64,000 nucleotides of DNA from Marsupella aquatica (lineage: Eukaryota > Plantae > Marchantiophyta): NCBI GenBank assembly GCA_973895155.1, contig OZ316894.1, positions 13,449,580 through 13,513,579 on the forward strand, in the 5' to 3' direction. Position 1 is the first letter of the stretch; every line of letters starts with the position of its first letter. The notes below the pieces were generated by a model. It was given only the letters and a program-made list of their open reading frames with translations, did not search any database and was not told where the DNA came from. The translations under genes and the position numbers were made by a program. Positions 3,601 to 37,138 of this stretch are shown one piece after another.

Positions 3601-5414
3601 TTGTCTCCAGCAAAGGGGTTTTCTCTTGTGGCCGGTGTAGGCCTACCTCTGTAGTAGTGTCCTGCATTGTTGCCGTTGCCGTTGTTGTTGCCGATGCCGA
3701 TTTCTTTTCTTTCTCCAGTAGTTTCAGCAGACTCTGCATGCCTGGTTGCTGCATCGGCAAGTCTTCCTTCCTGGGCCTAAACACCTGCTCGATCGTAGGA
3801 CTAACAGGTGGTTGAGGCTTCTCAGCCAACGGCCTCGGCGTTGGAGCTTCCTCGGGTGCCCTTACCTGCAGGGGAAGTACCGGGGCAAAAGTCTGTCCTC
3901 TGGCATACCGGCACAACAGCGGCATGTGATAGCCAAGCCGCGACACGCTCCCCATGCCGATTACCTGCTGCTCCTCCTTTAAGATCTTCTTCAATTGGTT
4001 GAGGAGGTACCCGTTGTAGTCCCGGCTTGGGTCTGGCCTTTCTGCCAGATAGACCTGTGCCTTGCCGATCTCTGCCCTCGGCAAGTTACAATGCATGGTC
4101 ACCCGCAAGAAGTCGATCATCTCTCCTATGTGCGGGTTGGTGCAGGTGTTCCGGAAGAAGCCATTCTTCGTTGATGGCCCGGGGAACGACCGGAACTCCT
4201 TGTCAGGCAAGGTCTTCCTGGTATCAACTTTGGTCTTATTGCCTATCGGCAGGCCAAACACTTCGGCAATTACCTTGGGAGTAAGATAGAAATCCTTCCC
4301 ATATATCCTCGTGCAATTGGTCTCGGGTTCCCATGACCCCACGAATTCTAATAGGTCTGACTCCGGTACCTCCGGCTTCAGCCATGGTAATCTTACAAAG
4401 GCCTCCAAGCCGGATCCGGCCATGAAGCCTTGGTACTTCTTGGTCTGCATGGCCGTAAAGCATGCATCCTCCTCCCGTGCAAAATGTAGTTGCACCTCCA
4501 CCGGTAGGGTTGCCGCCCAGCCCTTCCAGGTGTCATCCCTGGTTGGAATGGCCTTGATGGGATCGACCTCCTCCTCTTCGGCTTCTCCCTGCCTCCTGCT
4601 CTGCTGCTCGGCTGGCTTCTTTGGTGCCGCCGACCTCGTTCTTTTTGCCGGGGTGGCTTCATCGTTGACGGCTCCCTTCCTTTTCATCTCTGCTGCCGTG
4701 GAGGTTTCTCCTAGCACCGTTGCCCGGGTCCACCTTTCCGTGCTACCCTTTAATTCCCAGTGTATGTCGTTGCAGTTCTTGATGGCCTCTCGGATGCCGA
4801 CGACGCTGTCTTTGCAAAACAGAAGATCGTCGAGTTGATTGGAAGTAGGCGTCCACAGGAACTCGTCCTTGATGAGTTCGCCTCCTAAGAAAGCCATCTT
4901 CTGCAGCTCCCACAATCGAGCGAACTCCTGCCATTCTCGAGCTGCCCTTTCTGACTCCTCGTCCTCGTAAGTCTTGATGTACTCAGTTGCCCGTTCGAAC
5001 AGGCATCCCCAGAAATGTGCCGCTTGATTGACGTTGCTCATACCCTCCTTAGGTCGATCGTCGGTATCTACTCTCTCCCCGAGTGCTTGCCTAAGCAGCT
5101 GACAGTAGTTGGCCTCCCGTAGTCGTCTGCCTAGTTCGTGCTCGCAAATGAGCCACCATCTCCTGCAAGCGCTCCTTACCCCTCTCCTCTGCCGGTCCTT
5201 CTTCCCGTTGATCCTTCCTAGCCGCCGACGCTTAACACGCCCTAACCCTAATCGGGTTTTCACCCTCAGCCTTACCTCCGGCCTCTGCCCGGGTTCCATG
5301 GTTGCCCCTAATTGTTTATATTTTCCTTGTTTTGTCACTATACTAAGGTGTTCCTAGGGTGCCTTCCTGCTTTACCCACTTAACCGGCCGAGTGATTCCT
5401 GTCTAGGCATCACA
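660..5414 (-). repeat. 3' LTR of element A (4755 bp)
   Basis: Begins TGTGATGCC (minus) right after the PPT and ends ...GCACCACA at the TSD; direct repeat of 11639-16387 with roughly 20 differences seen by eye. Confidence 0.95.
1581..5338 (-). pseudogene. LTR-encoded ORF, 3' LTR copy, split by a 1-bp deletion at ~3630
   Basis: ORFs 3467-5338 and 1581-3563 together match the 1252-aa ORF of the 5' LTR; cttgtg|gccgg here versus cttgtgagccgg at ~14602. Confidence 0.9.
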
Positions 5415-8400
5415 TAGCTCCCCACTTAATTGTGAAGCGTCCTCGCGAACAACTTCATCTTCGTCCATATAGTATTTCTTGAGGCGGTCATAATGGATGC
5501 AAACTGGATATACCTCCCCCGTAATGTTGGCCAATTGTACGGAGCCATTGGGGAACATCATGGTTACTCTAAAGGGTCCTAACCAGCGAGTGTAAAGCTT
5601 TCCTGGGAACCTACTATACCTACTGTCATAAAGTAGCACAAGATCACCGGTATGAATACTAACTACTTTTAACCTTTTATCATACTGCTGCTTCATGATA
5701 TTCTATCTATATTCTACTCTCTCGGCTGAAATCATTCTCGCTTCCTCTAAAGCTTCTAACCTATATTCTCGCTCCTTTAGGCTCTCCTCCGCTGAGGCTC
5801 TTTCCTCAATTGTAACTTGAAATGTCGGTATCTCAAGTTGCATGGGTACCAGGGCTTCTTGTCCAAAGGTTAAGAAGAAGGGTGTATGACCAATAGTGGA
5901 TTTATAGGCAAGATTGTAAGCAAAAATAGCAGCAAACAATTTATCATCCCAATCGAGTTTGTTCTGAGCTACTGTCTTGTTCAATATATTTCCTATGATT
6001 CCGTTTGCTCGTTCTGTCAACCCGTTTGCCTTTGGATGGTAGGGAGTAGTAGGCCTATGTTTAACTAAATACTGCTCATTTAAACGACTAATTATATCAT
6101 TCAAAAAATGGGTTCCTCTATCACTAACTAATTCTAGGGGTGCTCCATACCTGGTGAAGATCTGCTCATACATGAATCTAGCCGTAGTAATTGCATCATC
6201 CTTCGTTGTTGGTCTGGCCTCTACCCATTTAGTTGCATAATCCGTAGCCAGGATTATGTACTTGTTCCGTCGAGGGTGGGTCAGTGGTTTCAGAGGTCCA
6301 ATGTAATCAATACCCCACTTCTCGAATGGTGCCAGAGGTAGAATAGGGTGCAGTGGATGCCTGGTGGACGCCCTTGGTCCTCCCGCTCGTTGACAAGGAT
6401 CGCATTGTTTGATAAACTGATAGACATCTTTGTGCAAGGTGGGCCACCAGTAACCGGCATTTAATATCTTCTTAGACGTGGTTACTGGGGCAAAATGTCC
6501 TCCGGCCTCCTCTCCATGCATGGCCCGTAGGACTCGTTTTACCTCTCTCTTTTCCAAACACCTTTGAATCGTGCCGTTGATTCCATGCTTGTGCAGTATG
6601 CCTTTAATGCACTGATACTGTCTGACCTTCCGCACAAAGACTGCGGCTTGCTCTCGGCTTAATCCTGGCTGTAATCTGGAAGTGCTGAGAAATTGTAAAA
6701 TCTCAGGGTACCATGTACCAGCTATTTCCACAACGAATAGCTCCTCGTCGGGGAATCGATCATCGATGCAATCCGTGGCAGGTTTACCTGTGATCCTTGA
6801 AAAGAAGTCGGCATTGGCATGTAACTTTCCCGGCTTGATCCTCAGCTCATAGTCAAACTCCTGTAATAGCAAAATCCATCTTGCTACTCTGCCTGTAAGG
6901 TCCGGCTTATTGACTAGGTACTTCAAACTTTCATGATCAGTATGAAAGATTACCTTGTACCCTAGTAAATAATGCCTAAACTTTTTACAAGAATAAATGA
7001 CTCCTAATGCTTCTCTTTCCGTGGTAGAGTAGTTTCGTTCGGCATCGGCAAGCTGACGGCTTGCGAAGTATATGGGATGGTCCCTTCCTTTCTCATCCAA
7101 CTGACTTAGTACTGAGCCAATACAGAAGCCCGAGACATCTACAAAAACATGAAAATCTTTGTTCCAGTCCGGTGCTATCATGACTGGGGCCTCTACTAAC
7201 ATCTGCTTCAATTCTACCACCGCTGTGACTCGTTCGGGTGTGGGTTCGAAGTCTGCTCCTGCCTTGAGCATATTGGTTAATGGTAAAGCCAGCTTGGCAA
7301 AATCCTTGATGAACCGGCGATAGTAACCAATGCATCCCAAGAAGGATCTTACATCCTTTATGTTCTTAGGTTGCATGATATCTAGCCATACTGCTAGCTT
7401 ACCTTTGTCAATCTCAATGCCCTTCCTTGATACCTTGTGACCTAGTAGCACCCCCTCGGTTACTGCAAAAAAACATTTATCTGGGTGTAACTTGAGACCC
7501 ACCTCTCTACATCTCATGAAGGTTTTCCTGAGGTATTTAGCATGTTTCGATGCCTTCCCGAATACTGCAAAGTCATCAATGAAGATTTCCATGAACTTTC
7601 TCAAGTAATCATGAAAAATGTTCACCATTAATCGTTGGAACATAGCTGGTGCGTTGCAGAGTCCAAACGGCATACGATTGAAGACATAGATCCCCCATTC
7701 CGTGATGAAGGCCGTCTTGATTTGGTCTTCTTGCCGAATCCTGATTTGGTTATAACCAGAGTATCCATCCATGAATGAATATAGTTCATGACTGGCTACC
7801 ATGTCTAGTACCATATCAGTAAACGGTAAAGGAAAATGGTCTTTTAATGTTGCTTCATTCAGCTTCCTGTAATCCTGACAAACCCGGATCTTGGGTTTAC
7901 CATCGGGTCCAGCTTTCTTGGGAACTATCACAATTGGAGACACCCAGTCTGAATGCAGGACTGGAGTGATGAATCCAGCTTCCACTAGTTTGTCGATTTC
8001 TGTTTTGACCAACAGGGAATACTTCGGGTTCATCCTTCGAATTGGTTGTCGAAATGATTTGGCTCCTAACATGAGATCAATTCGATGTTCCCCTAGTGTT
8101 GGATCTACTCCCTTTAGATCTTGGTGACTCCATGCAAACACATCCTGAAATTCAATCAATAAGTCACTGATCTCTTTCTCGAGCTCAGGTGCTAGGTTTC
8201 TCCCTAAGTTCAGTTCTCTTCCCTCTCCTAAGTCGAGCTTCCGATATTGCCGTGCTTGGATCATATTAATCTGCTTCTTCAAATTCGGGTCCAGTTCGGC
8301 TTCCAGTCTCTCTAATCTCATACCTCCATAAACTGGGATCTCGGCTGGACTAGCCGAGTCGGTCCCTTCCTTGGTGTCCATAGATTGTCCCCTTACTGGT

Positions 8401-8669
8401 CTATTCGGTTTTGAATTAGTGGTCGGCTCCCCTTCCTGCCTTGGCTCTAGATCGTGTATGTCCATCTCATCCACCTCTTGCTCCTGAGAGTTAGGCCGCT
8501 GTGCTCTCTCGGCTTCTAATAGGGCCTCAATTTGTTCTGCCCTCGTAATCGGCTTGTATGCCGATCCCTTGGTATTTAATTCCTTGCCGATGATCGATGG
8601 CGTTGTGGACCCCGTCGGCTCTGCCACAACGCCTGCAGAAAATCCACTGTCCCTGCTACTGCTCCCCAC
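5403..8669 (-). CDS. pol: pol (RT, RNase H, integrase with GPF tail) of element A; one in-frame TAG at 5703-5705
   Basis: RT motifs DHFPLPF, DGYSGYNQI, MPFGLCNAPAMFQR, FIDDF; RH FVDVS, NYSTTEREALG, TDH; INT HHCC and WGIDY, VSDRGTHF, NGLTER; ORF 5403-5696 (KLYTRWLGPFRV) is in the same frame; element B has CAG at the stop position. Confidence 0.93.
5415..5427 (-). promoter_or_regulatory. Polypurine tract (AAGTGGGGAGCTA) of element A, inside the last integrase codons
   Basis: Purine-rich tract directly before the 3' LTR TG; identical in element B (37114-37126). Confidence 0.8.
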
Positions 8670-11377
8670 TTAGCCGTTTCATCCAATTGGTCTACATCCT
8701 TTACTTCCTCCGGAATTGCAGCTAAAAAGGTGGATTCTATTGTAAAGCAGTCCTCGACCTCTTCGTCTTCTTCTTCCAAGTCACCTTCCATTGGTTCTTG
8801 CCATAATCCGCTGGGGGGTACCTCTGGTCCAAAGACACCTTCTTCGGTTAGGTTAGTGAGGCATTCTAACCAACGTACTTCATCGGCTGACTCCAGTCCA
8901 CTGTCGTACCCATCTACTTCCCTTATGCTTTTCCTACGGTCATCCTTAGTGTCCCAGGATACCGTGATAGAGGGGGTCCCGAAAGTGAACTGCTTTTTAC
9001 CCCAATCTTCTATTACCTCGGCTAGGTACAGCCATGGCCTACCAATCAATAGCCGGAATGACGTAGGATTTACCGGCTTCATTACTACATAGTTAATGCT
9101 AAAGAAGATACCTCCTATCTCTGTCTTGATGCCGGTTAACACTCCCGTCGGAACGACCTGATATCCATTGGCCATGTTCAACACTCTTCCAGTCATCTCC
9201 GGTGTTAGACCCCACCCTTTTGCTGTTGAATCAATCATAATACATACCCCTGATCCTCCATCGATGGGTACCCGTAGTAATAATTCTCCTTGAATCATTA
9301 ATGGTAATGCTGGGGCTCCTTGATCTTCTTCTATCATTAGTACGTCAGATCTGGTTGCTACCTTGGGTAATCTCGGCTTGCCGAGAATAGCCTTCCTTAA
9401 TTGCTTCCGGAAGTACGGGCTATTTTTCAATAGTTGACCTACTGTTGCCGAGACTCTAGATTCTAGTACATCTTTAGCCAGGTCATAGGGAACAATCGGC
9501 TTCTCTTCTGGTGGTGTTTCCGTCTTGGATTCGGCCAGTTTTGCCACGCTAGTCTCCACAGTTGTTGGGTCTTCCGAAGCAAACAATGCTTTTGCTCGTT
9601 TTACATCCTTGGCAATGGCTTCGGTATTCTCCAGGGTTTCTAATTCTCTTAGTTGTTCCTTAACACTAGCCGTAACAAAGGGGTAGAACAACTTAGGATG
9701 ATCTCGATTGAAGTCGCTATCTTGTGAAGGATTGGTTTCACTGGTGGGCTCATGGCTTACCTGTATTGCCGGAGCCCTCCCTTCTCCTTCTGTTGATGTT
9801 GACGAAGAGTCGATCCTTTCCTCCGTAACCTTCCCTTTATTTTTGGCCAGCCCATCCCACCTTTCCTTCCTTCTGGTAGATCGAGTAGAGACCCGGTAGC
9901 AATCATGATCTAAATCCTCCTCTGAGAAGGTTGATAGGGCTTCGGCCTCATCATCAGATGGTACGAACTCTGCCTCGGCATCCTCTTGCCATCCTAGTTC
10001 GATCTGGTTGATTTGAACTCCTCCGGGGGTAGTACCTGGCGGTAAGATCTTGATCGGCAAAAGCTTATGATTTGCGGCCAGGCCTGCCAACCAAGTAGGA
10101 CATTGCCCTAGCATATGACCTTCCTGTCGGCATCCCATACATAGCTGAGCTGGTTGTCCATCACCCTGTTTGCGTGCATTCAGGCATTCTCTAGCAAAAT
10201 GGCCAGGTTGACCACAATTATAGCACGCCGCAAATCTTTGCACATTCGGCCTAGGAGGTACTGACGGGTTCTGAATAATCCGAGGATACATCTCTCCTGG
10301 ATTGTTCCTTAACCCTGACCACAGAGATGCAGGTCTGTTGGATAGGTCTCGTGCTCCAGTCTCACTGATGCCGAAAACACTATCAGCGGCATCTCCCAAA
10401 AAGTACTCTACTTCTCCCTGACATGGTCTGATCTCGGCCACATGCCGAACATGATTAGTATTAAGCTTAGGACACGCATCTTTATGGTGTCCGGTTTTAT
10501 AACATAAGGCACACCATACAGAGCTATCCTCCTGTACTACCTTCTTCTTTGGTTTTACCTCTGCAATGATAGCCTTAAGTTGCTCGGTAAGGGCTACGAT
10601 GTTATCTGGTGGCTTAGCCTCCATCTTGACTTTCGTCTTCCCTCTCCTTCTGCCCTTCCTTTTCCTAGTTTTTTCTTCTTCAGAACTAGAAGATGACTCA
10701 CTCTTGCTACTCCCACTATCCGAGCTTGACTTATCACTTCTAGACTTCTTGGAATGTTTCTTCTTCTTATCTTTTTTCTTATGGGGTGATCCCTCCTCTG
10801 ATGAGGAACTCTCAGACTTAAGCTGTTTCTTCCGGCTTGTGATATCTGCATTAATGTATAATTGAATATCCTTAATTGCTTCGGCTAAAGTCTCCGGGTT
10901 CTCCTTCCTAATTGCAAAACTCATCTTCTGTGGCAAAGCATTCACCAACCATTGAAGTTGCATACCTTCAGATGCATTGGTCTTTGTACGTCTTACCAGT
11001 TTCTGAAAGCATTGCAAGAACTTCCTGAAGGATTTGTTCTCCTTGAACCGAAGTTGTCCCAACTTCAGCACTGCTAGTTCTGAAGTTCCAATGGGTCGAA
11101 ACTCCTTAACAAAGAGCGTTTTGAAGATATCCCAGATGGCTTGATCTTCCACATCTAATGCTCTGTACCAAGGCCTAGCCTCACCCTTGAACAGGCCGGG
11201 AAGAATCTGCATCTTGATGGCCGATTCTCCATTTGCTGCAGCGGTTCCCTCGAAATCATCCAACCATTCGTCCAGATCCTCATCTCCTCTCCCATGAAAT
11301 GCCTTGTAATGTATGCGCGACCGCTGGCTCAATCTGGTCCCTGGCCTCTCGTCTGGCCGTGCCTCTGGTTCCCCCAT
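8576..11377 (-). CDS. gag: gag-protease ORF of element A (933 aa)
   Basis: Retrotransposon gag core (FHGRGDEDLDEWL...GEARPWY); three CCHC knuckles (CALCYKTGHHKDAC, CYNCGQPGHFAREC, CMGCRQEGHMLGQC); aspartic protease IDGGS and LLIGRPWL. Confidence 0.93.
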   Translation of the reverse strand: MGEPEARPDERPGTRLSQRSRIHYKAFHGRGDEDLDEWLDDFEGTAAANGESAIKMQILPGLFKGEARPWYRALDVEDQAIWDIFKTLFVKEFRPIGTSELAVLKLGQLRFKENKSFRKFLQCFQKLVRRTKTNASEGMQLQWLVNALPQKMSFAIRKENPETLAEAIKDIQLYINADITSRKKQLKSESSSSEEGSPHKKKDKKKKHSKKSRSDKSSSDSGSSKSESSSSSEEEKTRKRKGRRRGKTKVKMEAKPPDNIVALTEQLKAIIAEVKPKKKVVQEDSSVWCALCYKTGHHKDACPKLNTNHVRHVAEIRPCQGEVEYFLGDAADSVFGISETGARDLSNRPASLWSGLRNNPGEMYPRIIQNPSVPPRPNVQRFAACYNCGQPGHFARECLNARKQGDGQPAQLCMGCRQEGHMLGQCPTWLAGLAANHKLLPIKILPPGTTPGGVQINQIELGWQEDAEAEFVPSDDEAEALSTFSEEDLDHDCYRVSTRSTRRKERWDGLAKNKGKVTEERIDSSSTSTEGEGRAPAIQVSHEPTSETNPSQDSDFNRDHPKLFYPFVTASVKEQLRELETLENTEAIAKDVKRAKALFASEDPTTVETSVAKLAESKTETPPEEKPIVPYDLAKDVLESRVSATVGQLLKNSPYFRKQLRKAILGKPRLPKVATRSDVLMIEEDQGAPALPLMIQGELLLRVPIDGGSGVCIMIDSTAKGWGLTPEMTGRVLNMANGYQVVPTGVLTGIKTEIGGIFFSINYVVMKPVNPTSFRLLIGRPWLYLAEVIEDWGKKQFTFGTPSITVSWDTKDDRRKSIREVDGYDSGLESADEVRWLECLTNLTEEGVFGPEVPPSGLWQEPMEGDLEEEDEEVEDCFTIESTFLAAIPEEVKDVDQLDETAKWGAVAGTVDFLQALWQSRRGPQRHRSSARN
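8586..8645 (-). promoter_or_regulatory. Predicted -1 ribosomal frameshift signal (G GAT TTT plus pseudoknot) between PR and RT
   Basis: Heptamer at 8639-8645 in the gag frame; 5-nt spacer; 10-bp stem GGCGTTGTGG/CCACAACGCC; loop GCCGA complementary to downstream TCGGC; pol is in the -1 frame; conserved in element B. Confidence 0.8.
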
Positions 11378-11615
11378 GTCGGTTGGAGACTCACTTCTCC
11401 TTACCGACTATTCTTCGGGTATGTCTTCTTCGATGCCACTTCCAGTTTCGGAGCTACCAGCTCTTTCTGCCCCTCTCAGTCGCTGTGTATCATGCCACCC
11501 GGCGAGCTGCTGCAGTCGAGCTCTCTCCCGTTGAATCACTCTTTCTTCCCTCGGCGTAAGGTCAGTCATTACCTACGCTTCCGTTCTAACTTCATATCTC
11601 ACGGCTTAAGAAATG

Positions 11616-11634
11616 CCCCCTCCATCTAGCGCCA
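11616..11634 (-). promoter_or_regulatory. Primer binding site TGGCGCTAGATGGAGGGGG, probably tRNA-Asn
   Basis: 4 nt after the 5' LTR end; near match to the reverse complement of the plant tRNA-Asn(GTT) 3' end (...CCCCTCCTTCTAGCGCCA, recalled from memory). Confidence 0.8.
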
Positions 11635-12552
11635 AAAATGTGGTGCGTCCCATGGCTCCCTAAACCCAAGAAACCCCCCAGCTCAAGCCGATTCCCACAG
11701 GTTTCGTGCTTGGCGAGGCCGTTTCCGCGGCTTAGCGGCATGGGACGCTGCTAACCTTCTACTACTACTATTAACATTTTACACACATATACTGGACAGA
11801 TAGGGTCATGAGATACGTAGCCGGCCTAATATAGGCCTTCCCCTGTCTTCCCCTGTCTTCCCCTCCGTCTTGTTAGGTATGTTTGGATTCCGCCGCCGGA
11901 ATGATCCCCAATAGGCTTGGTTAAGCCGCTAAGACCTCTCTCAGCTCGACACATCCAACTCTCACTCCCCTGCTTACTTTCCTTCCTTCTGTTGATGTGG
12001 GCACTCTTCACACAAGTTAATGCGACACACAAATAGCAAAATGACTCATTCTGACTGAGTCATACCATGCACTTGCCATACAAACAGTACATCTCATACA
12101 CAAGTTCTACGAACTAAGCCGTGAGGCCAACTCTATTCAGCTCTTAGGCATGAGGAAACATGAATATACACAAGGGTCACTGTATGACTAACCGAGAGCT
12201 TCTCGTACTACTTGATCCCAGCCCGGCTGGTGCAAACTAAAAACTTGCTAAAGAAGAGGCCCTGAGCTCCCCGCTGCCCAGGTACTTATCCTGGTAGTGG
12301 ATCCGCCATTCTTTGCATCGTAAGCCTAATCTACCTGACAGTAATCTACTTGCCCGAATCTACCTATGTACAGCAAGGCAGGAGCACAAGTGTTGCTCCT
12401 ACCAGTGGGACCGCAATCCCACTAAGCTAAGTGTCAGGGCCGTTCCTGGTTCTGATCCTAATCCTAAACGTGGAGATCCGCGCCCGCCCTGCCCACTCAC
12501 GCCTCCTCCCTCCACGTCCGCCCTCCCTAAAAGGAACGACGCCCTTGCACCG

Positions 12553-15500
12553 TCACGACACCGGTGGTGGATCCTCAATGGACGCCCCCAACACTTCCTC
12601 CTCAGTCACTGCCGTTGGCCCGCCTACTGACAGATTACCTGCCCTTGACCGAGTCAACTCTCCATCGGCCTGACTGGGTCCACCTTCGGCTTCAGCCTCG
12701 ACACCGGCCTCGGCAATACCCACGGCTTCGGCCTCAGCCACTCCCACGGCTTCGGCTTCAGCCACTCCCACGGCTTCGGCTTCAGCCACTCCCTCGGCTT
12801 CAGCCTCAGCCACTCCCTCGGCTTCGGCCTCAGCCACTCCCACGGCTTCGGCTTCAGCCACTCCCTCGGCTTCGGCCTCCCCTTCCCCTAGGGTAGTTGG
12901 ATCCTTAGCCGTGACCCTGTCTGGGGTCGGTGCTGGGTCTACCTCCTTGATCACCACGGCCTGTGAAGTCGTATTACTCCTTGACCCTGAAGGTTTCCGC
13001 TTCTTCTTCGTTGGTGGCTCGGCAACTGGTCCCTTCCCCTTCCCACTTACCTCCGGCACTGGTGCAGTTGACGCGGCTTGTCCTTCGGCAATTACCACCC
13101 CTGGTAACTGGTTTGTCCCAACGGGAGATGGACCTGCTGCAGCTAAGCATTTAAATACTGCGGCTTGTTTCTTCAGCCGCTCTGTTTGGTTGTCGGCCCG
13201 CCGCTGTAGGTTCTCCATCTTCCTCGTGATTTCCTCCAACTCCTCTTGGGTTTCATCCAGGTCCTTACGTGCCCCCTCCAGCTCGTTTTTGGCCTCCTCC
13301 TGCTCCCTGTGGGCTTCCTCCAATTCCTTCTTCAAGGTAGCCCTCTCCTCCTGGGTTGCTCTTAGCTCTTTGTCGAGCTCTGCAATGATGACAGACTCCA
13401 TCTGGTTCATCTTGGCGTAAGTCTGTTCGAGCATCTCGTCCTTCTCCCTTAGGTCGGCCTTGAAGCTGGCCGTCAGGGACGCAAGCTCCTGCTGCAGCGC
13501 CATAATCCCTTGATAGGATTTCCCTAACTCGACCTCCTTCTGCTCAAGGGCTCCGCGGATTTTCTCGAGCTCCCCTTTCAACGCCCATTCCTTTCTTTGG
13601 GTCTCCGCCATGGCCCGGCTGTTGGCTGTTATGTGGGCCTCCTCTGTATTCTTCAGCTCTTGCTTCCACTTCTCCCTCTCTTTGATCGTGTCGGCCAACT
13701 CTTCCTGCGTCTGAGTCAGTTTATCCTTGATATTCTGATTATCAGCCTGCGCGGTGTCCAACTGCCCCTGCATGATGTTCAGCTCATGTCGTTTAATCCG
13801 TAGTTCATCTTGGGCTTTCTTGGCCGCCCTTAGATCTTCAATCTCGGCTTCCATCCTCCTAAGCCGCCGAATGACCTCGTCCTTCTTGCTTCTCTCTAAA
13901 GCCACCGCTTCTTCTAATTGGTGCTTCTCCAACTGCTCCCTATGGAAAAAGGGTCCTATCTCCAACTCCTCTCCAAAGATGTCGAGCGCAAGTTCCCCAC
14001 ACATCTCACCATACTCCATGGCTCTATTCTTAGCGTAGGTGGAGTAAGTAGAAGTGATCGGCATCGCCCATCGTGGCCTCTGCTCCCAAGCCGTCCTGCG
14101 GATCTCTTCAATCGTGGCTAGAGGTTTGCTTCCTTTTTTGGCTAGCCGCCTGATGTCCTCCGGCCAATCTCCTCCTGGTAAATCCTTTTCCTTAGCCAGG
14201 GCGGCCTCTTCCTCCTGCTTGATTCGCTCCTGAAATTCCTGCACCGTCTGTTTTATGCCGTCGAAGCTCGGGGGAGCAACATCTGGTGGGGGAGACTCAG
14301 GGCTACTCTGCTGGTTGGGGTCCCCTCGCACTACCCTTGGAAGTGTGGGGACAAACCGGCCACAGGTCCTTACTCCTGGAACGTGATGGTCCGACCCATA
14401 GCCGGAATTATCATGGCTGCAGTCCTCCACTGCCTCCTCTACCTCTTGGACGTCCGGCTTCTCCCTCTCCTCTTCCTCGGTAGGAGCTTCAGGCAATTCT
14501 GCCTCAGATTCGGAGCTTGAGGTTCCCACGTACATTCGAACACCTGGCTTGGATTCCGGCCTGATTCTCTTCTTGTCTCCAGCAAAGGGGTTTTCTCTTG
14601 TGAGCCGGTGTAGGCCTACCTCTGTAGTAGTGTCCTGCATTGTTGCCGTTGCCGTTGTTGTTGCCGATGCCGATTTCTTTTCTTTCTCCAGTAGTTTCAG
14701 CAGACTCTGCATGCCTGGTTGCTGCATCGGCAAGTCTTCCTTCCTGGGCCTAAACACCTGCTCGATCGTAGGACTAACAGGTGGTTGAGGCTTCTCAGCC
14801 AACGGCCTCGGCGTTGGAGCTTCCTCGGGTGCCCTTACCTGCAGGGGAAGTACCGGGGCAAAAGTCTGTCCTCTGGCATACCGGCACAACAGCGGCATGT
14901 GATAGCCAAGCCGCGACACGCTCCCCATGCCGATTACCTGCTGCTCCTCCTTTAAGATCTTCTTCAATTGGTTGAGGAGGTACCCGTTGTAGTCCCGACT
15001 TGGGTCTGGCCTTTCTGCCAGATAGACCTGTGCCTTGCCGATCTCTGCCCTCGGCAAGTTACAATGCATGGTCACCCGCAAGAAGTCGATCATCTCTCCT
15101 ATGTGCGGGTTGGTGCAGGTGTTCCGGAAGAAGCCATTCTTCGTTGATGGCCCGGGGAACGACCGGAACTCCTTGTCAGGCAAGGTCTTCCTGGTATCAA
15201 CTTTGGTCTTATTGCCTATCGGCAGGCCAAACACTTCGGCAATTACCTTGGGAGTAAGATAGAAATCCTTCCCATATATCCTCGTGCAATTGGTCTCGGG
15301 TTCCCATGACCCCACGAATTCTAATAGGTCTGACTCCGGTACCTCCGGCTTCAGCCATGGTAATCTTACAAAGGCCTCCAAGCCGGATCCGGCCATGAAG
15401 CCTTGGTACTTCTTGGTCTGCATGGCCGTAAAGCATGCATCCTCCTCCCGTGCAAAATGTAGTTGCACCTCCACCGGTAGGGTTGCCGCCCAGCCCTTCC

Positions 15501-16311
15501 AGGTGTCATCCCTGGTTGGAATGGCCTTGATGGGATCGACCTCCTCCTCTTCGGCTTCTCCCTGCCTCCTGCTCTGCTGCTCGGCTGGCTTCTTTGGTGC
15601 CGCCGACCTCGTTCTTTTTGCCGGGGTGGCTTCATCGTTGACGGCTCCCTTCCTCTTCATCTCTGCTGCCGTGGAGGTTTCTCCTAGCACCGTTGCCCGG
15701 GTCCACCTTTCCGTGCTACCCTTTAATTCCCAGTGTATGTCGTTGCAGTTCTTGATGGCCTCTCGGATGCCAACGACGCTGTCTTTGCAAAACAGAAGAT
15801 CGTCGAGTTGATTGGAAGTAGGCGTCCACAGGAACTCGTCCTTGATGAGTTCGCCTCCTAAGAAAGCCATCTTCTGCAGCTCCCACAATCGAGCGAACTC
15901 CTGCCGTTCTCGAGCTGCCCTTTCTGACTCCTCGTCCTCGTAAGTCTTGATGTACTCAGTTGCCCGTTCGAACAGGCATCCCCAGAAATGTGCCGCTTGA
16001 TTGACGTTGCTCATACCCTCCTTAGGTCGATCGTCGGTATCTACTCTCTCCCCGAGTGCTTGCCTAAGCAGCTGACAGTAGTTGGCCTCCCATAGTCGTC
16101 TGCCTAGTTCGTGCTCGCAAATGAGCCACCATCTCCTGCAAGCGCTCCTTACCCCTCTCCTCTGCCGGTCCTTCTTCCCGTTGATCCTTCCTAGCCGCCG
16201 ACGCTTAACGCGCCCTAACCCTAATCGGGTTTTCACCCTCAGCCTTACCTCCGGCCTCTGCCCGGGTTCCATGGTTGCCCCTAATTGTTTATATTTTCCT
16301 TGTTTTGTCAC
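12553..16311 (-). CDS. Intact LTR-encoded protein (1252 aa open frame; likely ATG start at 16014, 1153 aa, or at 16272): plant-transposon/env-like domain, long coiled coil, acidic repeats
   Basis: Uninterrupted 3.76-kb ORF entirely within the LTR. The motif GLEAFVRLPW...DLLEFVGSW...IYGKDFYLTPKVIAEVFGLP resembles extra-ORF domains of plant retroelements (ATHILA ORF1 / Transposase_32-like; by eye). It also has a heptad-rich E/K/Q segment of ~250 aa and a KKKRK NLS-like motif. Confidence 0.85.
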   Translation of the reverse strand: MTKQGKYKQLGATMEPGQRPEVRLRVKTRLGLGRVKRRRLGRINGKKDRQRRGVRSACRRWWLICEHELGRRLWEANYCQLLRQALGERVDTDDRPKEGMSNVNQAAHFWGCLFERATEYIKTYEDEESERAARERQEFARLWELQKMAFLGGELIKDEFLWTPTSNQLDDLLFCKDSVVGIREAIKNCNDIHWELKGSTERWTRATVLGETSTAAEMKRKGAVNDEATPAKRTRSAAPKKPAEQQSRRQGEAEEEEVDPIKAIPTRDDTWKGWAATLPVEVQLHFAREEDACFTAMQTKKYQGFMAGSGLEAFVRLPWLKPEVPESDLLEFVGSWEPETNCTRIYGKDFYLTPKVIAEVFGLPIGNKTKVDTRKTLPDKEFRSFPGPSTKNGFFRNTCTNPHIGEMIDFLRVTMHCNLPRAEIGKAQVYLAERPDPSRDYNGYLLNQLKKILKEEQQVIGMGSVSRLGYHMPLLCRYARGQTFAPVLPLQVRAPEEAPTPRPLAEKPQPPVSPTIEQVFRPRKEDLPMQQPGMQSLLKLLEKEKKSASATTTATATMQDTTTEVGLHRLTRENPFAGDKKRIRPESKPGVRMYVGTSSSESEAELPEAPTEEEEREKPDVQEVEEAVEDCSHDNSGYGSDHHVPGVRTCGRFVPTLPRVVRGDPNQQSSPESPPPDVAPPSFDGIKQTVQEFQERIKQEEEAALAKEKDLPGGDWPEDIRRLAKKGSKPLATIEEIRRTAWEQRPRWAMPITSTYSTYAKNRAMEYGEMCGELALDIFGEELEIGPFFHREQLEKHQLEEAVALERSKKDEVIRRLRRMEAEIEDLRAAKKAQDELRIKRHELNIMQGQLDTAQADNQNIKDKLTQTQEELADTIKEREKWKQELKNTEEAHITANSRAMAETQRKEWALKGELEKIRGALEQKEVELGKSYQGIMALQQELASLTASFKADLREKDEMLEQTYAKMNQMESVIIAELDKELRATQEERATLKKELEEAHREQEEAKNELEGARKDLDETQEELEEITRKMENLQRRADNQTERLKKQAAVFKCLAAAGPSPVGTNQLPGVVIAEGQAASTAPVPEVSGKGKGPVAEPPTKKKRKPSGSRSNTTSQAVVIKEVDPAPTPDRVTAKDPTTLGEGEAEAEGVAEAEAVGVAEAEAEGVAEAEAEGVAEAEAVGVAEAEAVGVAEAEAVGIAEAGVEAEAEGGPSQADGELTRSRAGNLSVGGPTAVTEEEVLGASIEDPPPVS
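12688..12880 (-). repeat. 24-bp in-frame tandem repeat encoding (GVAEAEAE/V)n
   Basis: Repeated cggcttcggcctcagccactccc units; also at ~1715-1905; shorter or absent in the older LTR copies. Confidence 0.85.
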
Positions 16312-17473
16312 TATACTAAGGTGTTCCTAGGGTGCCTTCCTGCTTTACCCACTTAACCGGCCGAGTGATTCCTGTCTAGGCATCACAACTTGATAGCTCT
16401 TTATCACTAGGAACTACGGGAGGGACGCTCCATAAGAAGGAACTACCTCTATTTCCATTAAGCCTTTGCTTCTCCTTGAGACTATGCAGATGTATTTGGT
16501 TTCCGTCACCAGAAATGGGTATTCTTTGGTTTCCACCGCTGGAAATGTCCCCCTACCCGGCAAGACAACTAATCTAGGTCTCCTCCATCCAAAGAGAAGA
16601 CTTCTGGACTCACAAATATCATATGAGCAACATGCTAATCACAAGGGCCTCAAGATTTCAGATGAGTGCACATCAACAATTTCTTTCCCAGAAACGCGCT
16701 GAAATTTCATAAGAACTTCAAAGGAAGTACATGGGTAGGTTGTCACTACCTACTTGCTATACTTTAGCTTCTTCAACTTCTACTACTTAACACTATGGTC
16801 CTTTCAAGCCTCAAGGCATACACTTGAGTTCTAGTACCCCTAGAACATCTACCTTAGTTCCCCTAAGGTCTCTTAGTGCTACTCCTTGATTCTCCATACG
16901 TGGACCCACACAAAGTAACTCACACCAACTTAAGTACTCCTTGCTTGGCTCCAACTCATCACAAAGTCCAAAACCACCCCAAAGGCCAGCAAGTGACTCA
17001 CCACTAAAAAAAGACCAGCCCACCTTTCAAGGGGGTCAAAGATCCTTACTTATCCTCCTAACTATCTCACTAACTCACTTGTTTGTCTTACCTAACTAAT
17101 GAGCTAGTTGGTGGCCTTTTGAAAGCCTAAATCAACTCCTTGATTTCAGCCCTTCATTCAGGTCCACCTCACCTTCTGACTTGGCTGTCCTATCCCTCCA
17201 AATCAGGGACTAAGTCAGCCTCCAAAGTACAATCATCCCTATCTACCAAATAGCTCTAAAAATAGTAGAGGGATCAACTTCCAATGGCCCTCCAAGTTCC
17301 TCCAAGTTCCTCCAAAGTCTCCATATAACTCAGGTCCTTAGGTACCCTCCATGTTGGCTTTAAGGACTCCACTCCTTAACCTCCTTATTCCTGGACTCCA
17401 GAACCAGCCTAGGTCCCCTTGACATGAAAGAGCCCTTCTCCAGGCCTCACTCATCCGATTAGGGCCTTGCGAA

Positions 17474-27199: not shown

Positions 27200-28417
27200 G
27201 TCAGTAAGGAGAAGTGAGTCCCCAACCGACATGGGGGAACCGGAGGCACGACCAGAAGAGAGGCTAGGAACCAGACTGAGCCAAAGGTCGCGCATTCATT
27301 ACAAGGCATTTCATGGGAGAGGAGATGAGGATCCAGACGAATGGTTGGATGACTTCGAGGGAACCGCTGCAGCAAATGGAGAATCGGCCATCAAGATGCA
27401 AATTCTTCCCGGCCTGTTCAAGGGTGAGGCTAGGCCCTGGTATAGAGCATTGGATGTGGAAGATCAAGCCATCTGGCATACCTTCAAATCACTATTTGTA
27501 AAAGAGTTTTGACCCATTGGAACGTCAGAGCTAGCAGTGCTGAAGTTGGGACGACTTCGGTTCAAGGAGAACAAATCCTTCAGGAAGTTCTTGCAACGCT
27601 TCCAAAAGCTGGTAAGACGTACAAAGACCAATGCGTATGAAGGTATGCAAATTCAATGGTTGGTGAATGCTTTACCGCAGAAGATGAGTTTTGCAATTAG
27701 GAAGGAGAACCCAGAGACTTTAGCCGAGGCAATTAGGGATATTCAATTGTACATTAATGCAGATATCACAAGCCGGAAGAAACAGCTCAAGTTTGAGAGT
27801 TCCTCATCGGAGGAAGGATCACCACATAAGAAAAAAGATAAGAAAAAGAAACATTCTAAGAAGTCAAGAAGTGATAACTCAAGCTCGGATAGTGGAAGTA
27901 GCAAGAGTGAGTCATCTTCTAGTTCTGAATAAGAAAAATCCAGGAAAAAGAAGGGCAAAAGGAGGGGGAACTTGAAAGTCAAGCTAGAGGCTAAAACGCC
28001 AGATAACATCGTAGCTCTTACCAAGCAGCTTAAGGCTATAATAGCAGAGGTAAAGCCAAAGAAGAAAGTAGTACTGGAAGATAGCTCTGTATGGTGTATG
28101 TTATAAAACCGGACACCATAAAGATGCATGTCCTAAACTCACTACTAGTCATGTTCGGCATATAGCTGAGGTCAGACCGTGTTAGGGAGAAGTAGAGTAC
28201 TTTCTAGGGGATGCCGCTGATAGTGTTTTTGGCATCAGTGAGACTGGAGCACGAGACCTATCCAACCAACCTGCATCTCTCTGGTCAGGATTAAGGAACA
28301 ATCCGGGAGAGATGTATCCTTGGATTATTCAGAATCCATCAGTACCTCCTAGGCCGAATGTGCAACGATTTGCAGCATGCTATAATTGTGGTCAACCTGG
28401 CCATTTTGCTAGAGAAT

Positions 28418-31400
28418 TGTCACGTCGTAGGCTTCGGCCTTAACTCAGACTTCAGCTTAGACGGGCACATCCCTCGTAAATCTGAGGGTTCGGGCAGGAA
28501 GGGAAGCACGTAATGCACCTTATTCTCGTAAACTAGCGCTAAGTGCGCATACTGCTAAATACGGACACCTCCTAGGTATGGTTTGTGTTCTGCCGCCGGA
28601 ACATACCTTAGTCGATAGCAGGATCGACCCCGGCTTAAGGGCTTCTAAGTCTTTGTGCTGTCCGCCTTCGATCCGGATTCGATGATACAGGTCCTCAACC
28701 CGTGCTCGCAACCACTTACCCGCAAGCTGCACCCTGTGCACGTCTCGGGTAGTGCATTCGGCCTGGCGCTGCCACCCATATACGAGAAACCCACACACAT
28801 ATGCGCACACATGCATACAATCTCGATTTACACGAAGGAAAATGATGGGAAAGGATTTTACTACAAAGGGAACATATGCGTACACTTAGTTGACCCGACA
28901 GCCCTGGAATGAACAGGTTCAAGGCCGAGGGTGCACACTACAATGGAGCCCGGCTCCGCACTCGCCCGGCGAGCTTAGTCCTACCCCCTCCCCTTGGTAC
29001 TCTTTCATTCCCAAAGGTCGGGACTCCCCGCATATCCCACGGATGTCCGACTCTTAAACTAAAAACCCCCCCTGCCTCTACCGAGGGGCGCACTAAATAC
29101 TAAGAGCCGAGGGACGGGGTGTCCTCTCGCCGAAGATTCGCTGACTAAGGTCCTAACTAAGCTGACAGTCAGGCCGGAAAACGGCTGTGTCTTATTAGAA
29201 GATCCTAATCTACGCAGGCTGGATAGCAGGGCAGCGCTGCTGTACCTAAGGCAGGTGCCTGTCCCAAGAGCCTGACTAAGCCAATCCTAATCCTAATCTA
29301 TTCCTACTCCACCGCTAATGCCTGGCACGCTTGCCAGAGCCGCCCGAATGGGAACGGCCATCCCGCTGCCTTCGAAGCCTGTCATTGTCCGCTTTGAGGA
29401 GCTGGACCTGGTCCAGCAGAGATTCGTTCTCTCGCCTCGCCGCATCCGTCTCCTCTGCTGCCTCCTGACATGCCTCCTCCAGCTGCTGGGCGTCGCTCGT
29501 CAGTTTAGCCGCCAGCTGATCCTGCTTCTCGGCCTCGGTTTGGAGCCGCGCTATCTCGGCCTGCAGTGTGGCTATCTCCGCCGTGTCCCGCTGGGCTCGC
29601 TCCTCGGCCTCCTCCAGGTCTTTCTGCCAGGTGACAGCTTGTTTCTTCAAACTGTCAATCTGGTTCCGGAGTCGTGTAATCTCGGCCTCGTTCCCAGCTT
29701 TGGCCTGTTCGGCTAGGATGGTAAGAGCGTGCGCCTTTGCTAACAACTCATCGGCGGCTGCAACCTTGGGTCGTAGTTGCAGAAGCTCAGCCTCTTGAGC
29801 CGCCACTTCGTTCTTTAGGTACACGGACTCCACCCGGTACCGCTCTATCCTCTGAAGGGCCTCCGACTGGGCCCAACCTGCCTTTATGGCGGCAACCAAC
29901 TCCTGATTGAAGAAACAGGCTACCTTCCGGGCCATGAACTCCCCGGTATCCCGAGCAATTTGATGAGAGAAATCTCCCAGAAGCCCATTCAGAAACGTAC
30001 CCTGTACAAATAGTTCCGGGTGGTCCAAGTTGTGCCTGTCCGGATTTGGGCACGGGCAGACGTCAACACGCGCGGGGGCCGGGGCAGTGACGTCCAGCCC
30101 TGGGGACATAACGTTGAAAGGGGCTGGAGTGTCCTCCTGCAGCAATGTCCGGTTCTCTGGAATTGCCACCAGTGGGTCCTTGGGAGACCCGGGTTCGGGT
30201 AAGACCTCTGCCGTACCAACTTCTGTACTTAGCCCGGCTAGTTGGGTCATATCAACGGTTGCGACAACCGACCCCTCCGGCGCCTCCTTGGTTACGATTA
30301 CAGCTATTTGTGGAGGTGGGGTGGGTGAAGCTGGCGTGTCCGCTGGACTTCGGGCCTCGGGTTGGGGCCGTCTCTCCAATGCCGGAAAAACCCACCTAGT
30401 TGGGACCAACTTTGTAACGTTGATGCGGGGAAGGGTTCGTCGATCAAACCGGGCGTACCACTCAAGAATGATTTCGATGTGGCTAGCGAAATACGCCTTC
30501 CCGCCAATGTACAGCGTCTTCCTTCGCCGCTCCATCTCTTCATGGAATTTCTTAGCGAAGTACGACGCCCATTTCCTAGGTCTATAGTTCTCGACCTGGA
30601 TAACCTGGGCGGCGGAGATCTCCCCCGGGGTTCCATCATGTGGAGAGCGTACCTTTGGAACTCCAGCCGCTCAGCTATCTCGGGCATGAGGCAGGTCATC
30701 ATCACGAACCCGTTGTCTACTGCTCCCTCTGAGGGAAAACTTGAAGATTGGTACTTGGCCCCCTTGCCCCCGGGAGCCCGTGATTCGACTCGATGGTCAC
30801 CTTCGGGTAACCCGAAGATCATCTTGAGCCGTTCTTCTGTGAGGGACATATTCCTTCCCCGCAGCCGAGTCTGTTGACGTACGTCGTCATAATTCTTGAC
30901 GAATTCTGTCATGTCCTCCCCGTAGTACCTGCAAGTGTTCCAGGGGAGAGAGGTGAGGTGCTCAAATCCCTGAGTCTTCAGGTACACCGCATGCTTGGGA
31001 TGGAGGATGTTGCTGTGAACGTTTTCCCCCATGCGGTGCATCGTCACCTTGGCTACGGCTACCGTGGCCAACGGTAACCCGGATACAGTGGCGGATTCCT
31101 TCCTCTTCTTTCCCCGTGACTGACTCGGGGAAGGTGATACTTCCCCATCCTCCCGGTCGGGCCTGGGGAGTGCCACTGCCGTTGGTAACGGGCCCGGGGC
31201 GGCCACGGTCACCATGTTGTCTGCTGGGGCCGCTCCTAGGGTCATAGCAGGGGGTGGGGACAATATAGTGTCGGCCCCCCGAGCGCTTGTTCCTCTGGGC
31301 CGCCTGGTCAAGGGTGGGATAGCCTCGTCGTCATCGCTAAGATCCACAGCGTTGATGACGGAGCGTACCTGTGCTGGTTGGGTGATAGGTGGTGGGGTTT

Positions 31401-32434
31401 GGCTAGGTTGCGGCTGAGGCTGAAGCTGAAGCTGAGCCTGAGGTTGAGGCTGGGGTTGCATGGGCACGGGTACGGGTACGGGCACGGCTGAGTTGGTCAT
31501 GTTGGTTGATGGCCGAGTTCCCATGAAGCTCTGCAGGTGCTGGTAGAAGTTCTCCGAAGCGAGTGCGGACGCCCTTGTTGAACGGTTGGTATTGGACTCG
31601 CCGTTAATGACAGCCCGAACCCGGGCAGGGATGTGGTCGAAGTGATGTCGCTACAGGTCGATTGTAGCCGGGATGTTGAAGACCTCGTCCGGAAGCCGAA
31701 GCAATGCTTCCCAGAACCCGATATATTTGTCTCCGTTGAAGAAGTACCCAGATACCTCTGCTGGTCGGTAAAGCTCGCTCTGAGACGGGTAGTCAAAGTT
31801 AAGGACGTAGTGGTGTCGTCCTGCTAGGCGGATGGCTCTCTCGTATTCGCGTTCGATTTCGTATCGGCGCGGGTTGGCGTGTTTCAATGAATCGGCCAAG
31901 TGCCTTCCGGTAGATAGGAACTGCATCCAGAATTGAATGGCCGAGCTGGAGAGGATCGTGTGCGACATTCAGAGGAGATAGTAGTGGCGACCTAGAGAGA
32001 ACGAGAGAGCTGGGGTCGAAGCTGGCGTGCGGACTGATGGACTGGTGCACTACAAAGGGTTGGCTCCCCTTTTATACTTTGAGGGCTTGTCGATCCCCGA
32101 CGTCTCCTCGACGCCCATAGGCTGAACCGCTCACGCTTGTGGTGTACCGGCCACTCCGCCGGTCTGAGTCAGCGTGCGTCAGTGGCCGCTTCCTTAAGTT
32201 CGTTATACGGACCCGAGGGAGGGGCCCTTCCACGCTCGTAACCCGGGTGTGCGAATAGCGACCCGCCGCCAGCCCGAACCTGAAGTCCCCCTTATTGCCT
32301 AATGATGTCCTACCCCTAATGATTACCTAAATACTGTCGTTATGCTAATAATAGCGGCCTAAGACCCACCTAACGCACGTGCCGAGCGCAGTTAGACTGA
32401 ATCACTCATTAACCGCCATACCGGCAGCGTCACA
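28418..32434 (-). mobile_element. Family-2 solo LTR (4017 bp) carrying a homologous long ORF
   Basis: TGTCACG...CGTCACA termini; TSD AGAAT at 28413-28417 and 32435-32439; no gag/pol, PBS or internal direct repeats seen. Confidence 0.85.
29315..31968 (-). pseudogene. Family-2 LTR-encoded protein (~880 aa reconstructed) with one in-frame TAG (31651) and one 1-nt frameshift (~30625)
   Basis: 31651-31968 and 30304-31524 share a frame. GFEHLTSLPW...DMTEFVKNY...LRGRNMSLTEERLKMIFGLP aligns with the family-1 domain. Adding one G gives PRGEISAAQVIQVE (family 1: PRAEIGKAQVYLAE). C-terminal coiled coil. Confidence 0.82.
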
Positions 32435-33954
32435 AGAATGCCCGAATGCACGCAAACAAGGTGATGGACAACCAGCTCAGCTATGAATGGATGCCGCCAG
32501 GAGGGTCACATGCTAGGACAATGTCCTACTTGGTTGGCAGGACTGGCCGCAAATAATAAGCTCTTGCCAGTCAAGGTCTTGCCATCAGGTACTACCCCAG
32601 GAGGAGTTCAAATCAACCACATCGAACTCGGATGGCAAACGGATGCCAAGGTTGAGTTTGGACCATCTGATGATGAGGCCGAGGCCCTATCAACATTTTC
32701 AGAAGAGGATTTGGATCACGATTGCTATCGGGTTTCTACTTGATCCACCAGAAGGAAAGAAAGGTGGGATGGGCTGGCCAAAAATAAAGGGAAGGTTAAA
32801 GAAGAAAAGATCGACTCTTCGTCAACATCAACGGAAAGAGAAGGAAGGGCGCCGACAACACAGGTAAGCCATGAGCCCACCAGTGAGCCCAATCCTTCAC
32901 AGGACAGCGACTTCAATCAAGACCACCCTAAGTTGTTCTACCCCTCTATTACGGCTAGTGTTAAGGAACAACTGCGAGAATTGGAAACCCTGGAGAATAC
33001 CGAAGCCATAGCTAAGGATGTGAAACGAGCAAAAGCGTTGTTTGCTTTGAAAGATCCAAAGGCTGTGGAAACTAGCGTGAAAAAACAGGCCAAATCCAAT
33101 ATGAAGACACCGGCAGAAGAAAAGCCGATAGTCCCCCACGACCTGGCTAAAAATGTACTAGAATCTAGAGTCTCGGCAATAGTAGGTCAACTGTTGAAAA
33201 ATAGCCCTTATTTCCGGAAGTAGTTAAGGAAGGCCATTCTCGGTAAGCCAAGATTACCCAAGGTAGCAACCAGATCTGACATGCTGATGATAGAAGAAGA
33301 TCAAGGAGCCCCAGCATTACCATTAATGATTCAAGGAGAAATATTACTAAGGGTACCCATCGATGGAGGACCAGGGGTATGTATTATGATTGATTCAACA
33401 GCAAAAGGATGGGGACTAATGTCGGAGATGACTGGAAGAGTGTTGAACATGGCCAATGGGTATCAGGTCATTCCCATGGGAGTGTTAACCGGCATCAAGA
33501 CTGAGATAGGAGGGATCTTCTTTAGCATTAACTATGTGGTAATGAAGCCGGTAAACCCTACGTCATTTCGGCTATTGATTGGCAGGCCATGGTTGTATCT
33601 AGCCAAGGTAATAGAAGATTGGGGGAAGAAGGAGTTCACTTTTGGAACCCCCGCTATCACGGTATCTTGGGACACCAAGGATGACCATAGGAGAAGCATC
33701 AGGGAGGTAGACGGGTATGACAGTGGACTGGAGTCAGTAGATGAGGTATGTTGGCTAGAATGCCTCACTAACCTGACCGAAGAAAGTATCTTTGGACCAA
33801 AAGTGTCCCCCAGCGGACTATGGCAAGAACCTCTGGAGAGTGACTTCGAGGAATGTGAAGCAAAAACCGAGGACTGCTTTGCCATAGAGTCCACCTTCTT
33901 AGCTTCAATTCCGGAGGAAGCACAAGAGGTGGACCAGTTGGATGAAATGGCTAA

Positions 33955-36900: not shown

Positions 36901-37138
36901 TGTATTACTTTATGACAGTAGGTATAGCAGGTTTCCAGGTAAACTTTACACTTGCTGGTTAGGACCCTTCAGGGTAACCATGAAGTTCTCCAATGGCTCC
37001 GTGCAATTGGCCAACATTACTGGAGAGGTCTACCCCGTTCGCATTCATTACGACCGCCTCAAGAAATACTATATGGACGAAGATGAAGTTGTTCGCGAGG
37101 ACACTTCACAATTAAGTGGGGAGCTATGTGATGCCTAG
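33955..37138 (+). pseudogene. pol: pol of element B (RT-RH-INT), multiple stops and frameshifts
   Basis: Fragments nearly identical to element A pol, ending SQLSGELCDA inside the LTR. Confidence 0.92.
33979..34038 (+). promoter_or_regulatory. -1 frameshift signal of element B
   Basis: GGATTTT, 5 nt, GGCGTTGTGG...CCACAACGCC stem, loop GCCGG pairing with TCGGC (G-U in place of A-U). Confidence 0.75.

Follow-up and report, generated by a model that had tools for sequence, protein, structure and literature searches.

A gene-bearing insert in Marsupella aquatica, very probably a solo long terminal repeat, encodes a protein with a predicted VANC21-like core

What is the 4017-bp insert that interrupts the gag of a Ty3/gypsy retrotransposon in DNA deposited as Marsupella aquatica, and what does the one long gene inside it do? 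The window analysed here, a nest of Ty3/gypsy DNA, is a stretch of 64,000 nucleotides (GenBank assembly GCA_973895155.1, contig OZ316894.1, positions 13,449,580 to 13,513,579). Here, we describe the insert, called family 2, and compare it with a full-length element of the same window, element A of family 1, which carries a related gene within its long terminal repeats (LTRs). The insert is very probably a solo LTR of a second Ty3/gypsy family, because it has LTR-type termini, a target-site duplication (TSD), a layout like that of the family-1 LTR and a 3' motif in common with it. The core of the encoded protein is assigned, with moderate confidence, a fold like that of the transposon anti-silencing protein VANC21, and we give an even chance to the fuller proposal that the insert is a solo LTR with a gene for a VANC/PMD-like DNA-binding protein that loosens silencing of its own family.

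28418..32434, minus strand (element orientation): family-2 unit with TG...CA ends, likely a solo LTR
28413..28417: left copy of the TSD, AGAAT
32435..32439: right copy of the TSD, AGAAT

Coordinates, length (4017 bp), TG...CA ends and a perfect 5-bp duplication are all as claimed in a preliminary description made from the sequence alone. The insertion site lies in the gag of a second family-1 element (element B), and the flanks of the insert (27199-28417 and 32435-36629) together correspond to one uninterrupted stretch of gag-pol in the intact element A (11409-5990). Four public sequencing runs were searched for the insert sequence, and the empty-site joint (28412->32435) is present in contigs of two of the four. 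The insert was also said to lack gag, pol and internal repeats, and this held: tblastn found no gag or pol similarity inside it, and its longest internal direct repeat is 25 nt. It has no terminal direct repeats of at least 14 nt, and none of its 17 inverted pairs of at least 14 nt is a terminal inverted repeat (TIR).

29315..31968, minus strand: accessory gene of about 884 codons, a pseudogene in the insert copy
31606..31968, minus strand: conserved N-terminal domain, about 120 aa, of no known family, helical in a homolog's model
30404..31068, minus strand: conserved core, about 220 aa, which contains the frame change and is predicted to have a VANC21/PMD-like fold
29348..29971, minus strand: long coiled coil

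The open reading frame (ORF) of the insert had been described as about 880 aa long and broken by one TAG and one missing G, and it proved to be so: it spans 31968 to 29315 on the minus strand (2654 nt, about 884 codons), codon 106 is its one stop (31651-31653), and the frame changes once, near 30621-30625. The insert copy is therefore a pseudogene, unable to make the full-length protein. In the public runs, reads from other family-2 copies carry a sense codon at the stop site in 99-100% of the depth (four of four runs), and a form longer by one base makes up 38-56% of the depth at the frame-change site, so that the stop is missing from other copies and the frameshift from many of them. The homolog P0129 stays in one frame across the latter site. 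The lesions are mostly private to the insert copy, and some other copies may share its frameshift. Among the 31 best-supported substitutions listed (the full list holds 403 further rows), 24 are C-to-T-type losses in the insert copy, 12 of them at CG, the context of 558 of the 2279 cytosines of the insert; this pattern fits a methylated, decaying copy.

660..16387, minus strand: full-length family-1 element A (reference), with two 4.75-kb LTRs, PBS-like and PPT-like sites (primer-binding site and polypurine tract), gag-pol and TSD ACTTG
12553..16014, minus strand: intact family-1 gene (reference), 1153 aa, in the 5' LTR of element A, with the start MSNV

Homology of the family-1 and family-2 proteins, first proposed by eye, is strongest at the core (BLASTP E=3e-13, 44 of 151 residues identical), where the local score of 187 compares with a maximum of 56 in 500 shuffles, and it extends to the stretch before and within the coil (E=2e-4). 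The N-terminal likeness fared differently. As a pairwise alignment it was discarded as evidence, since 51 of 500 shuffles score as well, but a profile of six family-2-like N-termini matches family-1 residues 5-106 at 23.4 bits (0 of 1000 shuffles as good, the best reaching 7.2). The same profile match supports MSNV (16014) as the start of the family-1 protein, which the preliminary description had favoured.

A full HMMER scan returned 72 homologs at E<=1e-3; eight of the 20 looked up have an organism assigned, and these are all liverworts (six Calypogeia fissa, among them CAM6122807, CAM6086215, CAM6102936 and CAM6082161, and two Riccia sorocarpa, KAL3685530 and KAL3679715). P0197, an intact family-2-like homolog of 906 aa, has all three domains in order and is 30% identical to the N-terminal half of the insert protein. 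In two Riccia sorocarpa homologs (P0168 and P0172) the homologous core is predicted together with a fragment of DDE_Tnp_4 (Harbinger-type); the core domain may ride on DNA transposons too, or these gene models may be chimeric. A word-seeded protein search with the family-1 core gave 0 of 404 candidates, one for longer fused forms gave 0 of 5630, which is weak evidence, and metagenome scans gave no homolog locus (0 of 157 and 0 of 74 stretches). Pfam searches of the LTR proteins of the window returned only sub-threshold coiled-coil and chance-level matches. Transposase_32 (PF20167) matches 4 of 40 aligned members weakly (best E=1.6e-5, 25.3 bits against a cut-off of 45) and does not match the window proteins. 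The LTR proteins have no transmembrane stretch (maximum 19-residue hydropathy 1.26) and contain basic patches resembling nuclear localization signals.

The predicted fold gives a lead to function. The family-1 core model has a predicted local distance difference test (pLDDT) value of 92, and VIA-align, run against 48,161 PDB representatives, found one chain at Z>=2, DNA-bound VANC21 (9lnk_A; Z 8.7, root-mean-square deviation (rmsd) 4.1, 205 of 215 residues aligned). Foldseek likewise ranked VANC21 first for this core (template modelling (TM) score 0.49, E 0.57; other listed rows at most 0.18) and for P0197 (prob 0.99, E 0.032). Residues 314-537 of P0197 align to VANC21 by VIA-align with Z 8.3 and rmsd 6.0, and among 50 rows VANC21 alone covers the core, the others matching the coiled coil; this second model was built from an alignment overlapping that of the family-1 core. 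With moderate confidence, the core is predicted to have a VANC21-like fold, the match being isolated, whole-domain and repeated in the second model. Sequence comparison with the PDB did not find VANC21, PDB sequence profiles gave only weak matches, mostly outside the core, and nothing in a viral fold library matched at E<=0.001 (top row A0A890CAY5, prob 0.75, rmsd 18.6).

VANC21 recognises a short DNA motif and causes loss of methylation (PMC5735166), and it loosens silencing of its own family in trans (PMC5735166, PMC10398659); a coiled coil is predicted to mediate its oligomerisation (PMC13547354). By analogy, the helical N-terminal domain, the DNA-binding core and the coiled-coil oligomeriser of the LTR protein would act in the nucleus, where the oligomer would bind short motifs in cognate elements and loosen their silencing in trans. 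We regard an anti-silencing role for the LTR protein as evenly balanced. Several points weigh against it. The VANC21 match is of moderate quality (Z 8.3-8.7, rmsd 4-6, 7-11% identity, Foldseek E above 0.001), a best Z of 7-8 is common according to VIA-align's own warning, and the models were built for the core of family 1 and for a homolog with 30% identity rather than for the protein of the insert itself. Neither the window proteins nor 49 homologs have a Pfam match to DUF1985 or PMD (PF10536). The targets of VANC proteins are tandem motif arrays, which do not occur in the family-1 and family-2 LTRs, and no 7-9-mers are over-represented in the non-coding parts of these LTRs. A fold in common does not establish function, and this one does not tell the direction of the effect, silencing or anti-silencing: MAIN and MAIL1, which have it too, were first described as promoting silencing (PMC5418596), although PMD-C proteins counteract Polycomb in later work (10.1101/2024.09.27.615353).

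The best-surviving alternative keeps both the solo LTR and a real accessory gene and gives the protein another job, as an LTR transactivator, an integration-site or chromatin tether, a factor for nuclear import of the integration complex or a self-limiting silencer in the manner of MAIN/MAIL1. We consider this a real possibility, short of an even chance: silencing and anti-silencing proteins have the fold in common, target arrays are missing from the LTRs of both families, and a general part in regulating the life cycle has been proposed for the accessory ORFs of plant LTR elements (PMC7264820). The sole solved structural match, however, is an anti-silencing DNA binder, and the build of core plus coiled coil parallels VANC. 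Judging by the two Riccia homologs with a DDE_Tnp_4 stretch, the domain may also serve unrelated transposon types, so that a host-facing role fits better than a retrotransposon-specific one.

32070..32076, minus strand: TATA-like box TATAAAA, a candidate gene promoter, about 100 nt before the ATG and with a CT-rich leader after it
29067..29101, minus strand: TATA-like block in common with the non-coding family-3 units; candidate genomic-RNA promoter

Where in the LTR does the gene lie? The simplest reading, and a probable one, is that it lies in U3 with a promoter of its own, since a genomic-RNA promoter at 29067..29101 would place it there. This 36-nt TATA-like block downstream of the stop aligns between families 2 and 3 with a score of 45 (0 of 200 shuffles as good); family 3 carries short tandem arrays, not a gene, upstream of it, and no equivalent was found in family 1. 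Family 3 is a third TG...CA unit, present in two copies at 38914-41672 (plus strand) and 51733-54200 (minus strand) with TSDs CAAGG and TCCCC and no long ORF; with family 2 it has in common its terminus, TGTGACG, as well as the 3' motif and the TATA-like block. That the U3 assignment depends on a single 36-nt motif counts against it. It is rather unlikely that the gene lies instead in R/U5, with the TATA box at 32070-32076 starting the genomic RNA, the gene as its first cistron and gag-pol in need of splicing or internal initiation. Of the TATA boxes in the insert, TATAAAA comes closest to the consensus, and it has its CT-rich leader, the downstream block offers only the weaker TATTTAG and lacks a family-1 equivalent, but the R/U5 arrangement would require a strong-stop cDNA of 3.6 kb, and in the non-coding family 3 the block reads TATATAG, 1.4 kb from the 3' end. 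With the gene in U3 behind its own upstream TATA box, reverse transcription would copy it to both ends of the element, and it would stay behind in solo LTRs after loss of the internal region. Among animal retroviruses, mouse mammary tumour virus (MMTV) sag and lentiviral nef are host-facing accessory genes within or overlapping the LTR (U3); they are much shorter than the gene described here and encode unrelated proteins.

28573..28601, minus strand: motif near the 3' end, kept in all three TG...CA families, with a potential hairpin in families 1 and 3

The layout of the insert resembles that of the family-1 LTR, with 466 nt (family 2) and 373 nt (family 1) before the ATG and 897 and 914 nt after the stop. 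Although the DNA had been judged unalignable by eye, it does align at a 29-nt 3' motif common to both families (score 36 for families 1 and 2, 47 for families 1 and 3, each with 0 of 200 shuffles as good), which is located 184-332 nt from the 3' end in all three families. Its core was matched seven times in the window, each time within a TG...CA unit of one of the three families, and never in shuffles, the search pattern having been chosen after the motif was seen. The public runs cover the insert in 30 of 30 bins (four of four runs) at a summed depth similar to that of the family-1 gag flank, which is not a copy number. Eleven of the 23 loose ends listed (of 30; short branching contigs may have been missed) lie at the 28415-28418 terminus, the one examined closely, and show nine different flanks. 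Nine unrelated flanks at one sharp end indicate many family-2 insertions, and the unit is thus multi-copy with a fixed terminus at the examined end.

On the solo-LTR reading, a family-2 element would have inserted into the gag of element B and then lost its internal region when its two LTRs recombined. The preliminary description's coding solo LTR is upheld by termini, TSD, layout and 3' motif, but paired LTRs around gag-pol were seen only for family 1. One negative result tells against it: among the loose ends of the four runs (23 of 30 listed) no PBS stands, and no family-2 LTR was seen beside a PBS, a PPT or gag-pol. It is quite improbable that the insert is instead a TG...CA mobile unit in its own right, either a non-autonomous DNA transposon of the Ginger/GingerRoot kind or an internally deleted element. 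In favour of such a unit, beyond the missing paired copy and PBS junction, GingerRoot elements occur in bryophytes, can have TG...CA ends and start from about 3.9 kb (PMC6839031), and related cores accompany DDE_Tnp_4 in Riccia predictions. Yet Ginger and GingerRoot TIRs are 100-150 bp long, compared with no terminal inverted or direct repeat of at least 14 nt here, and their TSDs are 6 bp (GingerRoot, Ginger2) or 4 bp (Ginger1) rather than 5 (PMC6839031). The insert has no transposase match, integrase-like DDE transposases included, which a non-autonomous copy could lack, and it agrees with a bona fide family-1 LTR in its gene, its layout and its 3' motif.

Selection on the gene was measured by the ratio of nonsynonymous to synonymous substitution rates (dN/dS) in three pairwise comparisons among family-1 copies, all against the same copy. 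The values are 0.08-0.11 for the core, 0.14-0.17 for the N-terminal domain, 0.19-0.25 for the coil and 0.53-0.87 for the tail, which is nearly unconstrained, as compared with 0.12 for pol. The family-1 LTR gene is under purifying selection, its core as strongly as pol, which supports the selection proposed in the preliminary description. For family 2, the evidence lies in the open frame of other copies and in the intact 906-aa homolog. The gene as a captured, non-functional passenger, a reading that could draw on the stop and frameshift of the insert copy and on three older family-1 LTR copies with 3, 6 and 7 stops, is very improbable and for family 1 largely refuted, given a core dN/dS equal to that of pol, the sense codon at the stop site of other family-2 copies (99-100% of depth in all four runs) and three domains kept in order across 27-30% identity.

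The surrounding DNA also consists of nested elements. The LTRs of element A are 99.6% identical, with a PBS-like site starting TGG 4 nt after the 5' LTR and a purine tract before the 3' LTR, and the internal order is gag, reverse transcriptase (RT), RNase H (RH), integrase (IN), without a chromodomain or an archaeal RNase H; on sequence grounds family 1 is classed as non-chromovirus Ty3/gypsy. In a quick, midpoint-rooted RT-RH tree (family 1 and the 98 of 120 hits that were of sufficient length), it groups with two Calypogeia fissa proteins and one further protein (SH-aLRT, the Shimodaira-Hasegawa-like approximate likelihood ratio test, 100). The 5' LTR copy of its gene is intact, and the 3' LTR copy has a frame change (3611-3629) that leaves the ORF in two frames. 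A 24-bp tandem repeat (12705-12879 and 1733-1907) encodes the (EAEAVGVA)n tail of the protein. Element B, from 17474, has LTRs 96% identical over 960 nt and contains the family-2 insert, two family-1 solo LTRs, both with TSDs, and, nested in one of these, a family-3 unit; the two solo LTRs suggest that solo formation is common here. The 3' LTR of element B (37127-45551), which breaks off at 45551, is split at its 21st base by a family-1 solo LTR with the TSD GAATC and with TA in place of TG at its start. No tRNA genes by which the PBS could be typed were found in the window. Other Ty3/gypsy elements have left degraded pieces of RT/RNase H and integrase (54278-55614, minus strand, and 56590-56964, plus strand), 29-39% identical to family-1 pol. 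A TTGGTCC-based minisatellite lies at 49951-50170, and a 417-bp direct repeat pair, 93% identical and 1444 nt apart, at 46744-48604.

At the same place the two family-3 copies carry different tandem arrays, a 13-bp unit repeated 17 times and an 8-bp unit repeated 26 times, which suggests fast turnover like that of VANC target arrays. One of these arrays (39593-39833) repeats CGTTGTCC, one base off the VANC6 motif AGTTGTCC, probably by coincidence. Separately, GTATTTAG, which is found three times in the non-coding parts of the insert and is similar to the VANC21 motif YAGTATTAY, was rejected as evidence: the k-mer test on these parts was not significant, the motif had been picked afterwards, and four of the seven window matches of its pattern lie in family-1 pol DNA.

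How does the LTR protein compare with known systems? VANC21 of VANDAL21 (Arabidopsis MuDR; PDB 9LNK/9LNJ) is likewise encoded by a transposable element and has a conserved domain among variable regions, a coiled coil and the fold predicted here for the core. The gene described here, in contrast, belongs to an LTR retrotransposon of a likely liverwort, with 7-11% identity and no DUF1985 match, whereas VANC is described as MuDR-encoded and dicot-specific and is proposed to stem from dicot capture of a MAIN-like host gene (PMC13547354). PMD-A of Gypsy (Ogre), related to MAIN/MAIL1, is also a Gypsy-encoded accessory domain (PMC5418596), and PMD-C is reported to resemble VANC in structure (10.1101/2024.09.27.615353, PMC13547354). 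PMD-A is reported from angiosperms; here there is no PF10536 match, the gene lies inside the LTR, and family-1 pol, unlike that of Tat/Ogre, lacks an archaeal RNase H. The LTR protein and PMD probably belong to the same fold superfamily, and the LTR protein likely stands outside VANC and PMD by sequence and inside their superfamily by predicted fold.

Extra ORFs are common in plant Ty3/gypsy elements and mostly have no known function (PMC7264820, PMC6317226, PMC11728184, PMC3485330, PMC12786077); their published positions are in the internal region, either ahead of gag or behind pol. Athila ORF1/Transposase_32 (PF20167) resembles the present proteins through the weak match in 4 of 40 members and is also predicted to oligomerise by coiled coils (PMC13547354), but the additional ORFs (aORFs) of Athila lie in the internal region and the window proteins do not match PF20167. 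Retrosat2/RIRE3 of rice, compared by description, has LTRs of more than 3 kb, an extra ORF and many solo LTRs, but its ORF0 is described as lying upstream of gag-pol and was looked for apart from the LTR (PMC3485330). Env-like aORFs differ from the gene here, whose product is without a transmembrane segment. A full-text search of part of the literature found no report of a large gene inside the LTR of a plant retrotransposon or of a VANC-like fold in liverwort elements, and PMC12885004, on liverwort LTR lineages, has no mention of either in the text examined. The Gypsy-encoded PMD-A and the structural link of VANC to MAIN are already published; new is the predicted VANC21 fold of the LTR-borne core, a protein that the preliminary description had left unidentified.

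In family 1, and likely in a second family deeply diverged from it, most of the LTR is taken up by a gene of 880-1150 codons; LTR annotators that restrict their ORF search to the internal region would overlook genes of this kind. The structural lead points to the one well-studied transposon anti-silencer and makes it testable whether retrotransposons encode sequence-specific anti-silencers. The gene is also of interest for the question of where VANC came from and for that of whether a solo LTR is inert. It is a tentative and somewhat doubtful further step that an anti-silencing gene of the VANC kind has long been present in U3 of liverwort Ty3/gypsy elements, and that their solo LTRs reactivate relatives in trans, possibly including the non-coding family 3 with its fast-changing arrays; solo-LTR formation, the usual route by which such elements are disarmed, would then leave a working counter-defence gene behind. 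If this is true, retrotransposons would encode sequence-specific anti-silencing, and the VANC/PMD fold would occur in transposons well outside the flowering plants.

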